From Patescibacteria group bacterium (GTDB taxonomy: Bacteria; Patescibacteriota; UBA1384; UBA12157; JAENIV01), in NCBI GenBank assembly GCA_049515915.1, contig JBEKTP010000002.1, positions 36,524 to 100,523 of the forward strand: DNA of 64,000 nucleotides, written 5' to 3'. The first letter of the stretch is position 1, and every line of letters starts with the position of its first letter. The notes beneath the pieces are model-generated. The model worked only from the letters and a program-made list of their open reading frames with translations, was not told the origin of the DNA and did not search any database. Positions 8,398 through 11,611 of this stretch are shown here, one piece after another. The position numbers and the translations under genes were made by a program.

Positions 8398-10008
8398 TTA
8401 TAGCTTGCTAAGCCAATTGGAAATATAAGCCAAAATTTTATCAAAAAAACTTGTTTGATTCATTCCGGTTGCCGGTAAAGCAGTGACGACAGATGTAGCG
8501 GGAGTAGACGTAATATCACCCGCGTATTTGATAATAACGGTGTTGTCGTTATTAATTGCACCGGTCGCCGTCACATTATTACCGAAATTATATTCACCGT
8601 TACCATCAATCATACCCACCGCATAAGCATTACCATTAGAGTCAACCGAAATACCATAAAGGTAGCAATCTTCCGGTGCAGTGACGGCTGAACTAGCCCA
8701 TTGAGCTACGCCACTGGAATTATATTTGATGACAAAACCGTTATTATCATCAGCATCACCGCCGCTCACGGTCACACCGCTACCAAAATTAAATTTCGTA
8801 TTGCTGCCAATCTCGCCCGCGGCATAAACATTGTCACTAGAGTCAACTGAGATACTGGTAAAATAGGAATCGCTTGGCGCCGCCGGCGTGGTTGATTTAG
8901 CCCACTGAGCCAGACCGCTGGAATTATATTTGACAATGATCGTATTGTCACCAGAGCCATCGCCGCCAGTTACCGTCGCGCCGTTACCAAAATCAAATTC
9001 GCTATTGCCGCCAATCTTACCGGCCGCATAGATATTATTATCAGAACCAACCACGATGCCGGTAAAAGTAGAATCGGCCGGCGCCGTGACAGCCGCTTTG
9101 GCCCACTGGGCGACGCCGGCTGAGCTGTATTTGATGATAACGGCGTTGTCGCTGGAATTATCTTTGCCAGTTACCGTCACGCCATTACCGAAATCATATT
9201 CGCCGCCGTCGCTGATGTAACCACCAATGTAAATATTATTATCAGCACTAACCGAAACACTATCAAACCATGCAATGCTTGGCGCCGTGATGGCGCTTTC
9301 GGCCCACTGGGCCGTGCCGCTGGAGTTATATTTAACGATGACGCCGTTATCCGTCGCACTATTACCAGTTACCGTTGCGCCGTTGCCGAAATCATATTGA
9401 GTATTGCCGTCAATATAGCCAACTGCGTAAATATTGTTATCAGGGCCAACCGAGATACCATTGAAACCAGAATCGCTTGGCGCGGTAGCGGCAGTTTTGG
9501 CCCACTGGGCGACGCCGGCTGAGCTGTATTTGATGATAACGGCGTTGTCGTTTCCAGCATCGCCGCCAGTTACCGTTGCGCCGTTGCCGAAATTAAATTC
9601 AACGTTGCCGTTGATGTAACCACCGACGCAGATACTATTATCAGGACCAATCGCGAGAGCACTAAAAAAGGAGCTACCTGGCGCCGTGGAGGCGGTTTCG
9701 GCCCACTGGGTTACGCCGCTAGAGTTGTACTTAACGATGACACCATTATCAGTTGCATTATTGCCAGTTACCGTCACGCCATTACCGAAATCAAATTCGC
9801 CGTTGCCGTTAATATGGCCGGCGGCATAGATATTGTTTCTGGAGTCAACCGCCGTCGCAAAAAAATCGGAACCGGCTGGCGCTGTCACAGTTGTTTCGGC
9901 CCACTGAGGATCACCCGGTGTTGAAGCGGCTAGTGCTATCCCCGACCGAGACAAAAACAAAGTTAACATAAATAGATCAATTAAAACCAAGGTTAGATTT
10001 TTTTTCAT
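8398..10008 (-). CDS. secreted SBBP-type beta-propeller repeat surface protein with C-terminal LPATG motif
   Basis: About nine ~55-aa repeats (QWA..TAP..SxF..ISVDSDNNIYAAG.I.GN.EFDFGNG.TVTG...DN.VIIKYNSSG); signal peptide from the ATG at 10008 (MKKNLTLVLIDLF); ends ...TALPATGMNQ... Confidence 0.65.
   Translation of the reverse strand: MKKNLTLVLIDLFMLTLFLSRSGIALAASTPGDPQWAETTVTAPAGSDFFATAVDSRNNIYAAGHINGNGEFDFGNGVTVTGNNATDNGVIVKYNSSGVTQWAETASTAPGSSFFSALAIGPDNSICVGGYINGNVEFNFGNGATVTGGDAGNDNAVIIKYSSAGVAQWAKTAATAPSDSGFNGISVGPDNNIYAVGYIDGNTQYDFGNGATVTGNSATDNGVIVKYNSSGTAQWAESAITAPSIAWFDSVSVSADNNIYIGGYISDGGEYDFGNGVTVTGKDNSSDNAVIIKYSSAGVAQWAKAAVTAPADSTFTGIVVGSDNNIYAAGKIGGNSEFDFGNGATVTGGDGSGDNTIIVKYNSSGLAQWAKSTTPAAPSDSYFTSISVDSSDNVYAAGEIGSNTKFNFGSGVTVSGGDADDNNGFVIKYNSSGVAQWASSAVTAPEDCYLYGISVDSNGNAYAVGMIDGNGEYNFGNNVTATGAINNDNTVIIKYAGDITSTPATSVVTALPATGMNQTSFFDKILAYISNWLSKL
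8480..9960 (-). repeat. intragenic tandem coding repeats (~165-bp units) in the SBBP gene, including exact ~50-bp duplicates
   Basis: 9101-9152 and 9501-9552 are identical (gcccactgggcgacgccggctgagctgtatttgatgataacggcgttgtcg); periodic reuse of ccactgggc...ttatatttgac blocks. Confidence 0.7.
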
Positions 10009-10106
10009 TATTCCCTTCAAAAATCTAAAAACTATTGCACATATATTATATACCAAAGCTCTATAAAAACAAAAAACGGCCACCCATTTGCCGCGATTTT
10101 CGAAAT

Positions 10107-10383
10107 TGGCTCCCCGGGTCCGATTCGAACGGACAACATGCTCCTTACACTGATCTCCTAATTGCTTAAGAGGGTGGACTATCTCATCGCCATCTCTTTT
10201 GATTTAGGCGTAGGGCATATAGTCTCTGAACCTTCAACGATGTTACCATCGAAGCTTGGCTGCGGATTACCCTTTGATTACTCTTGGGGTTTCCCGACAA
10301 TTAACCCTATTTTTCAATCCGCCTTTCAGCGGAAAGCTGCAATATTCTTACAGGGAGCCGCTCTACCGTTGAGCTACCGGGGA
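10107..10383 (-). tRNA. tRNA (most likely Asn, anticodon GUU) interrupted by a group I intron in the anticodon loop
   Basis: Exon 1 (10383..10350) forms acceptor, D arm and anticodon stem; exon 2 (10147..10107) gives anticodon stem GGAGC, T arm and CCA; U1-A72 with G73 fits Asn; the alternative reading is Thr(UGU). Confidence 0.7.
10148..10349 (-). ncRNA. group I self-splicing intron (~202 nt) within the tRNA
   Basis: Conserved P (AAUUGUCGGGAAACCCC), Q (AAUCCGCAGC), R (GUUCAGAGACUAUA) and S (GAGAUAGUCC) elements in canonical order; candidate P1 CUGU/GCAG with U:G at the 5' splice site; intron ends in G. Confidence 0.7.
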
Positions 10384-10426
10384 ATAATACTTTATATCTT
10401 AAATCATAACCACAGAATGGTCAACC

Positions 10427-11611
10427 TTATCTTAAATAATCTTTTAATTTATCGGCTTTTTCGGACTTTCGCAGTTTTTGCAATGATTTGGCCTCAATCT
10501 GGCGAATCCGTTCCCGCGTCACCCCAAATTCCTTGCCGACTTCTTCGAGCGTGTGAGTGCGACCGTCTTCCAAGCCAAATCTCATCTTTAAAATCTTTTG
10601 CTCGCGAGGGGACAAAAAAATCAGCGATTCACCGACATGACCTTTCATCAATTGATAAATGGCGTTTTCCTCGGGCGAGAGAGATTCTTTATCTTCGATA
10701 AAATCGCCCAGCCGCGAATCGTCTTCTTCACCGACCGGCGTTTCCAAGCTGACCGTTTCTTGAGAAATTTTTAAAATATGTTCCACTTTTTCGACCGGAA
10801 TACTCATCTCAGCGGCAATTTCTTCCGGTAATGGTTCGCGGCCTAAATCCTGAACCAGCTGTCTTTGAGTTCGAATCATTTTATTGATGGTTTCAACCAT
10901 ATGAACCGGGATTCGGATAGTGCGGGCCTGATCAGCAATGGCCCGGGTAATCGCCTGGCGAATCCACCACGTCGCGTAGGTCGAAAATTTATAGCCTTTA
11001 CGATAGTCAAATTTTTCAACCGCCCGTAAGAGTCCGGTGTTACCTTCTTGGATTAAATCGAGCAAAGAAAGTCCTCGCCCAATATATTTTTTGGCGATGG
11101 AAACCACCAATCGCAGATTGGCTTCAGCTAATTTTCGCTTCGCCGTCTCGTCCCCTGCCTCAATTCGTTTGGCTAACCGCACCTCGTCTTCAGTTTTTAG
11201 CAAAGAAATCCGGCCGATTTCTCTTAGATACATTCGAACCGAATCATCGGAAATATCTTTGATTTCGCTGGCTTTTTGTGTCGCTTCTGTCTCGATTTCT
11301 AAAAGCCTTTTTCCTTCGCGCACATCAATGCCCTGAACCGAAAACTCGTCATATAAAGCATCGAGTAAAGAAATTTTTTGTTCAGGAAAAGGAAAAGCTT
11401 GAAGAATTTCCTGATAGGTGACAAAACCGTGCTGGCGACCTTTATCCAACAATTTATCGAGCCCGCTCGGGAATTTTACCATCACATCTTTTTGGGATCT
11501 TCGAGCTTGAGCGATTTTTGATATTTTAACCACTTTCGAAGCTAAAACACGGGCTCTCGAATTTTTTCTTAAACGAGAAATCTCAGTTTTAAGATTTTTA
11601 TTTAATGGCAT
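10427..11611 (-). CDS. rpoD: RNA polymerase primary sigma factor (sigma-70 family)
   Basis: Regions 2-4 conserved: [53 protein letters not shown]. Confidence 0.9.

Follow-up and report, generated by a model that had tools for sequence, protein, structure and literature searches.

A split tRNA gene downstream of rpoD

In an uncultured bacterium labelled as a member of the Patescibacteria, two halves of a tRNA lie 202 nt apart downstream of the dnaG and rpoD genes, and this locus raises the questions of what separates the halves, which tRNA they would form once joined, and whether the intervening RNA still splices. The locus is very probably a tRNA-Asn(GUU) gene in which a compact, self-splicing group I intron of 202 nt is inserted between U35 and U36. 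The predicted fold, the assigned splice sites and the Asn identity of the exons are supported by sequence and covariation. Catalysis by the copy in the window (the whole 64-kb stretch of DNA analysed here) we infer from its homology to the intron of GCA_016700035.1, which has been spliced in vitro, and from its intact conserved core positions.

The split gene occupies positions 10107-10383 of the minus strand, with exons of 34 and 41 nt around the 202-nt group I intron (Table 1). The acceptor stem (TCCCCGG/CCGGGGA) leads into G73 and a CCA that is encoded in the gene; GCTC-AACGGTA-GAGC forms the D arm, GCTCC/GGAGC the anticodon stem and GTCCG-TTCGAAT-CGGAC the T arm. An earlier interpretation made from the letters of this DNA (hereafter, the sequence-only reading) had proposed a 277-nt minus-strand tRNA gene with normal cloverleaf arms, and all of these arms were found where it had placed them.

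ARAGORN in default mode missed the split tRNA-Asn, its sole call in the 64-kb window being a tRNA-Ser elsewhere, and the Rfam tRNA model did not detect the split gene in the 400-nt region searched, even at E<=1. Intron-aware tRNA finding, which the sequence-only reading had suggested, was run with ARAGORN and returned tRNA-Asn(gtt), placing a 202-nt intron behind gene nucleotide 34, equivalent to the canonical position 35/36. The spliced 75-mer was also called tRNA-Asn(gtt) by ARAGORN.

Intron_gpI (RF00028) was the sole Rfam family matched in the window. The match, at 10155-10359 of the minus strand, covers the full model (positions 1-253) with 82.3 bits, against a gathering score of 50, and E=2.1e-19; the sequence-only reading had suggested this covariance-model search as well. 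The intron (10349..10148) holds, in order, AATTGTCGGGAAACCCC, AATCCGCAGC, GTTCAGAGACTATA and GAGATAGTCC, and its last base is G. The P, Q, R and S elements that had been read in these 202 nt are thus all present in the proposed order, as is the terminal G. Same-strand ORFs within the intron reach at most 38 aa.

A merely coincidental resemblance to group I motifs and tRNA halves can be dismissed outright, given the Rfam match (E=2e-19), the failure of the core pattern to match even once in 100 shuffles of the window, and the dozens of homologues that occupy the same site in the same tRNA and show compensatory changes. Positions 10148-10349 of the minus strand are a confirmed group I intron inside a genuine tRNA gene, an observation far beyond chance.

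Table 1. Features of the split tRNA-Asn locus (window coordinates; pairing and compensatory changes as counted in the 43-sequence alignment)
Feature	Position	Strand	Description
tRNA-Asn 5' exon, 34 nt	10350..10383	-	acceptor 5' strand, D arm, anticodon stem 5' strand, C32 U33 G34 U35; from sequence and intron-aware ARAGORN
tRNA-Asn 3' exon, 41 nt	10107..10147	-	U36 A37 A38, anticodon stem 3' strand, variable loop, T arm, acceptor 3' strand, G73, CCA
Group I intron, 202 nt	10148..10349	-	boundaries from Rfam RF00028 and ARAGORN; no ORF of homing-endonuclease size
Terminal guanosine (omega-G)	10148	-	directly before U36; G precedes UAA in 43/43 homologues
P1	10337..10353	-	exon C32-U35 and intron A1-A2 (10348-10353) pair with internal guide UUGCAG (10337-10342); U35·G10 is the splice-site wobble
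P2 hairpin, 6 bp, GAAA tetraloop (L2)	10318..10333	-	6/6 pairs compensatory; 96.5% paired
P3 5' strand, UAGGGU	10304..10309	-	partner 10211-10216; 4/6 pairs compensatory; 99.2% paired
P4-P5-P4' domain, L5 GUAA	10261..10299	-	P and Q of the sequence-only reading; P4 invariant, 100% paired; P5 76.8% paired, 2/4 compensatory
P6 hairpin, GUAA loop	10230..10260	-	7/7 pairs compensatory in the family; 89.3% paired; two U·U in the window copy
P7 5' strand, G-A-GACUA	10220..10226	-	R of the sequence-only reading; partner 10176-10181; 5/6 pairs invariant; 99.6% paired
P3 3' strand, GCCCUA	10211..10216	-	3 nt from P7; no P7.1/P7.2
P8 hairpin	10188..10210	-	CCUAAA...GAUGG motif resembling the 11-nt GAAA-tetraloop receptor; 3/4 stem pairs compensatory
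P7 3' strand, UAGUCC	10176..10181	-	S of the sequence-only reading; from the alignment of 43
P9 hairpin, 7 bp, GCAA tetraloop	10155..10172	-	7/7 pairs compensatory; 92.3% paired
Candidate sigma-70-like promoter, TTGACC-17 nt-TAAGAT	10396..10424	-	between the rpoD stop codon and the tRNA; consensus scan 9/12, not above shuffle expectation

Conserved secondary structure and a probable tertiary contact

Homologues were collected with a core-pattern scan of one genome per species, which yielded 120 loci; the 42 non-redundant loci with Asn-type exons were combined with the window copy in an alignment of 43 sequences (A1). In this alignment, the window intron aligns with Saccharimonadia, Microgenomatia, Paceibacteria and Peregrinibacteria-labelled copies.

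Using the window sequence and the Rfam alignment, we drew helices P1 to P9 by hand, mapped them onto A1 and counted the pairs. Across the 43 sequences, 95.1% of the 2226 cells hold standard pairs, versus 32-43% when the 3' partners are slid by 1-3 columns. Compensatory changes, on both sides of the pair, were found in 31 of the 54 pairs, and none of 500 shuffles reached the observed covariation score. Covariation is detectable at every pair of P2, P6 and P9 and at most pairs of P3 and P8; almost no variation is seen in P4 and P7, the pattern expected of a catalytic core. A pseudoknot arises where P3 and P7 cross, and P7 presumably includes the guanosine-binding pair, beside the bulged A. All helices of the window copy are fully paired apart from P6, which contains two U·U mismatches. 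The minimum-free-energy fold of the isolated intron, from a calculation that cannot represent the P3/P7 pseudoknot, is modestly better than those of shuffled sequences (z=-1.97), and the thermodynamic fold recovers P5, P6, P8 and P9, as well as P2 (centroid fold).

The match between a GAAA tetraloop and its 11-nt receptor is a classical pairing rule, and the GAAA of L2 and the CCUAAA...GAUGG of P8 in the window intron conform to it. The CCUAA-type receptor-like motif in P8 is present in 14 of the 23 copies in which L2 is GAAA versus none of the 20 copies with other L2 loops.

An extension between P7 and P3', consisting of P7.1 and P7.2, is a criterion of subgroup IA (Michel-Westhof). The window copy lacks this hallmark, with 3 nt between P7 and P3'; 24 of the 43 relatives, counted with a cut-off of more than 10 nt, have inserts of 19-47 nt at this position that resemble P7.1/P7.2. 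The compact form is shared with 18 other homologues, from Microgenomatia-type and Chloroflexota genomes. The L1 loop of the window copy is also short (5 nt). A hand search for P10, in which the 3' exon would pair with the guide sequence, produced no convincing pairing, leaving the choice of the 3' splice site to the omega-G alone.

Splice register and tRNA identity

The hexamer TGTAAG is repeated at both junctions, so that in either of two registers the exon would end in U, the intron in G, and the loop would have 7 nt. Splicing at 35/36 gives GUU (Asn), and splicing 2 nt upstream, at 33/34, gives UGU (Thr). In the latter case, the gene would be a tRNA-Thr(UGU) with both splice sites displaced by 2 nt and an intron at 10351..10150. 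ARAGORN gives this reading for several homologues, and both ARAGORN and tFind often make such a call (PMC13011429). We nevertheless consider a tRNA-Thr extremely unlikely for the following reasons. With the shifted 5' site, U33 would pair with A, not G, in P1, whereas the U35·G wobble at the 5' splice site is invariant (43/43), as is the CUGU terminus of the 5' exon (43/43 homologues). The next P1 pair joins intron nucleotide 1 to the guide base on the 5' side of that G and reads AU in 23 copies, CG in 11, GC in 6 and GU in 2; because this adjacent pair covaries, the 5' splice site is placed after U35. At the other end of the intron, several relatives read ...CUUG/UAA or ...AAUG/UAA (the slash marks the junction) and have no G 2 nt upstream; therefore, only 35/36 is possible for them.

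The body of the tRNA points to Asn as well. Intron-less Asn or Thr tRNAs were not found within the 120 genome loci, and the comparison was made with matches from pattern scans of viral and metagenome contigs. The intron-less tRNAs with the same acceptor and D arm, for which the pattern allowed a free choice among GTT, TGT, GGT and TTT, had GTT in two cases out of two. A total of 147 intron-less metagenomic matches share the whole anticodon stem and carry TTT (109), GTT (35) or TGT (3). The combination of U1-A72 and G73 occurs with GTT only (28/28 ARAGORN-delimited copies), and all three TGT genes, the true Thr(UGU) genes with this anticodon stem, have G1-C72. Finally, for a homologue with the same ambiguity, the sequenced in-vitro product is GUU (PMC13011429).

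The sequence-only reading had favoured tRNA-Asn on the strength of a CUGU/GCAG P1 with U:G at the splice site, an intron between positions 35 and 36, and the fit of U1-A72 and G73 to Asn identity. Covariation backs the first two points and the resulting GUU anticodon, and the intron-less tRNAs sharing the anticodon stem bear out the third. The alternative UGU splice site, which the same reading had flagged, exists as described; covariation, the relatives (several of which, in the comparison of intron positions it had also suggested, permit only 35/36), the intron-less tRNAs and the sequenced product of the homologue all reject it.

On the reverse strand of a metagenome contig (Ga0315291_10329144, L207), at about 507-727, a second, Asn-like gene lies 13 nt beyond an intact tRNA-Asn(GTT) that has no intron. 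This second gene also lacks an intron, and its final 59 nt match the spliced exons of the window exactly, across the predicted junction; the 41-nt 3' exon of the split gene is 100% identical in it. The second gene also has a 56-nt GC-rich hairpin insert in the D loop (fold -33 kcal/mol) and a mismatched 5' acceptor strand. It may be a pseudogene, the result of the insertion of a small hairpin element, or an assembly chimera.

Predicted splicing pathway

The precursor of tRNA-Asn(GUU) would fold into P1-P9, with the exon end CUGU paired to the guide GCAG and the U35·G wobble marking the 5' splice site. On one side, the GAAA loop of P2 is predicted to dock with P8 at its receptor-like motif; on the other, P9 would provide the cap with its GCAA loop. 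An external guanosine bound in P7 would attack after U35; the terminal G (10148) would replace the external guanosine, and the freed 3'-OH of U35 would attack after the terminal G. Joining of the exons would yield the anticodon loop CUGUUAA, and the ligated junction would read ...GGCUCCCUGUUAAGGAGC....

A different reading of the same structure is that of a decayed intron that no longer splices and leaves the gene a tRNA pseudogene. The two U·U mismatches in P6 and the lack of the P7.1/P7.2 extension that 24 of the 43 relatives possess could be taken as signs of such decay. However, the window copy retains 63 of the 63 invariant columns of the family alignment, every helix but P6 is fully paired in it, and the compact form is not peculiar to it, being present in 18 other homologues. 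Furthermore, three assemblies carry this locus, each with an identical ARAGORN call and with printed exon and intron-end sequences that agree with the window, and intron-bearing tRNA genes are usually the sole copy for their anticodon (PMC13011429). Loss of splicing is thus very unlikely, and the features of the window copy are those of a putatively active intron.

Relationship to known tRNA introns

The classical bacterial IC3 introns are located at position 34/35 of cyanobacterial and plastid tRNA-Leu(UAA), at 33/34 of tRNA-fMet, and at 36/37 of Azoarcus tRNA-Ile(CAU) and Agrobacterium tRNA-Arg(CCU). Like the window intron, they are small (~200-250 nt), ORF-less, inserted in the anticodon loop and built on a P1-P9 layout without large peripheral domains; the Azoarcus intron likewise has GNRA tetraloops as L2 and L9, of which L2 docks on P8. 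Their host tRNAs and insertion sites, however, differ from those of the window intron (Asn, 35/36).

The view of the sequence-only reading that an Asn host would be unusual, with only Leu, fMet, Ile and Arg being classical, is outdated by two studies. Williams 2020 (bioRxiv 10.1101/2020.01.27.920355), who used tFind, increased the tally of group I intron types in tRNAs from 4 to 21, a set that includes 'Asn.4Ug' as cited by Nakagawa et al. (PMC13011429). Nakagawa et al. (preprint July 2025, 10.1101/2025.07.03.662931; mSystems January 2026, PMC13011429) found introns at 35/36 in 15 tRNA-Asn(GUU) and 3 tRNA-Asp genes of 95 complete Patescibacteria genomes, and documented the same 2-nt Asn/Thr ambiguity and the resulting mis-calls by ARAGORN and tFind. 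They showed that the intron of GCA_016700035.1 self-splices precisely in vitro, with a sequenced product that corresponds to excision at 35/36 and the anticodon GUU, and that mutation of its omega-G to C blocks exon ligation (PMC13011429). The class was assigned to subgroup IA, and in the phylogeny the Patescibacteria Asn introns group with IA, not IC. Four of the published Asn introns contain HNH endonucleases, located in L1 in the three with sequences shown (PMC13011429).

The window intron has every testable defining feature of this published Patescibacteria tRNA-Asn 35/36 class. The two are alike in host tRNA, insertion site, U-1, omega-G and host phylum, and share the same core, AAUUGCGGGAA, AAUCCGCAGCCAAG, AAGGUUCAGAGACUA and GAUGAGAUAGUCCAC; the window gene, too, is missed by default tRNA finders. 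With its 202 nt, the window intron is close to the minimum of the published lengths (184-894 nt). Compared with the tested GCA_016700035.1 intron (234 nt), it is identical at 149 of 190 aligned positions, with the conserved core blocks common to both, but it lacks the P7.1/P7.2-like insert that the tested intron has between P7 and P3'. It also differs from the four published Asn introns with an HNH endonuclease ORF, having no such ORF.

The class, the 35/36 site, the Asn/Thr annotation trap and self-splicing have already been published, and the window copy brings no new biology. It adds to the class one compact, endonuclease-free member whose structure is well supported by covariation. Recognition of such genes has a practical value: because default tRNA finders miss the split gene, a genome bin of this organism would seem to lack tRNA-Asn and would be scored as less complete.

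Genomic context and host

The split tRNA starts 44 nt downstream of a gene for a 394-aa sigma-70 factor (rpoD, 10427-11611), which overlaps dnaG (both assigned by Pfam families). The same arrangement recurs in the family: of the 17 loci whose stretch includes rpoD, 16 have the tRNA on the same strand as that gene and 32-2385 nt downstream of it. A terminator scan downstream of the tRNA passed no candidate; a weak 4-bp hairpin followed by a T-run is visible there.

An RpoD identical to that of the window is encoded on contigs of at least three metagenome assemblies. ARAGORN calls tRNA-Asn(gtt) on each of them, again with an intron of 202 nt, and the exon and intron-end sequences printed for these three metagenome copies match the window. 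Metagenomes of peat or soil type are the source of this member of the intron family. Among named genomes, the nearest are MAGs deposited as 'Patescibacteria group bacterium' (RpoD 82%, DnaG 58%) and 'Candidatus Saccharibacteria' (RpoD 84%), the latter with exons nearly identical to those of the window. Judging by these depositors' MAG labels, the gene belongs to an uncultured member of the Patescibacteria.

The gene that follows immediately downstream (8398-10083, minus strand) encodes a secreted-looking protein of 536-561 aa with repeated 'NSSGxxQWA...G..DN.IY..G' units. This repeat protein has faint matches to the Pfam SBBP beta-propeller repeat and is conserved in the three metagenome copies of the locus. 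On the opposite strand, a TTG-started ORF of 179 aa (10162-10701, plus strand) lies antisense to the 3' end of rpoD, to the 5' exon of the tRNA and to the intron; it is almost certainly spurious, and we dismissed it as an artefact.

Copies in Chloroflexota

The same compact tRNA-Asn 35/36 intron was found in Chloroflexota MAGs from Limnocylindria and Chloroflexia (L023, L034, L079, L089, L106 and L111), and three further loci (L052, L053 and L095) carry the same compact Chloroflexota intron as judged by eye. In the five of these loci whose stretch includes rpoD (L034, L079, L089, L106 and L111), the tRNA, as in Patescibacteria, follows rpoD on the same strand, at a distance of 87-2385 nt. The survey of complete genomes listed introns at 35/36 outside Patescibacteria only in Cyanobacteriota, Nitrospirota, Bacillota_A, Bipolaricaulota and Pseudomonadota; Chloroflexota are not listed (PMC13011429).

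The rpoD-linked, intron-bearing tRNA-Asn might be an ancient, vertically inherited locus common to Patescibacteria and Chloroflexota, a scenario that we regard as doubtful; transfer is the alternative. Should the locus be older than the divergence of these phyla, the compact form lacking P7.1/P7.2 might represent the ancestral state. The intron would then serve as a rare RNA-level marker of the proposed sister relationship between Patescibacteria and Chloroflexota.

Variation among related loci

Four loci, including the closest relative (L100, with a 255-nt intron; the others are L037, L050 and L078), have an extra insert of ~40-55 nt in the P4/P5 region (about columns 181-234 of A1) that the window copy lacks.

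Several MAG organism labels among the homologues look unreliable (L028, L012, L033, L036, L042, L058, L071, L076, L078 and L115). One contig labelled 'Woesearchaeota archaeon' carries a bacterial sigma-70 gene and the tRNA-Asn intron, and the exons of L036, labelled 'uncultured Pseudomonadales', are identical to those of a Collierbacteria genome (L098). Similar mis-binning was remarked on in Williams 2020 (10.1101/2020.01.27.920355).

A related intron is present in Isosphaeraceae/Planctomycetota loci (including L009, L013, L017, L022, L024, L043, L059, L073 and L116), in a tRNA with the acceptor strand GCGGCCC and the loop CUCAU/...G/AA. By eye, the host is a tRNA(CAU) with the intron at 36/37, of the classical Ile2/Met type; the ARAGORN labels for these loci vary among Gln, Lys, Arg, Ser and Pro.

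In a close relative (L099:3546-3772, minus strand), the L1 loop, ACCTTAAATCC...GGATTAGTGCAGC, resembles both ends of the HNH-bearing L1 of the published GCA_001029735.1 intron (accctaaaaatcc...ctggattagtgcagc). This resemblance suggests that the L1 loop of L099 is a remnant of a deleted homing endonuclease gene.
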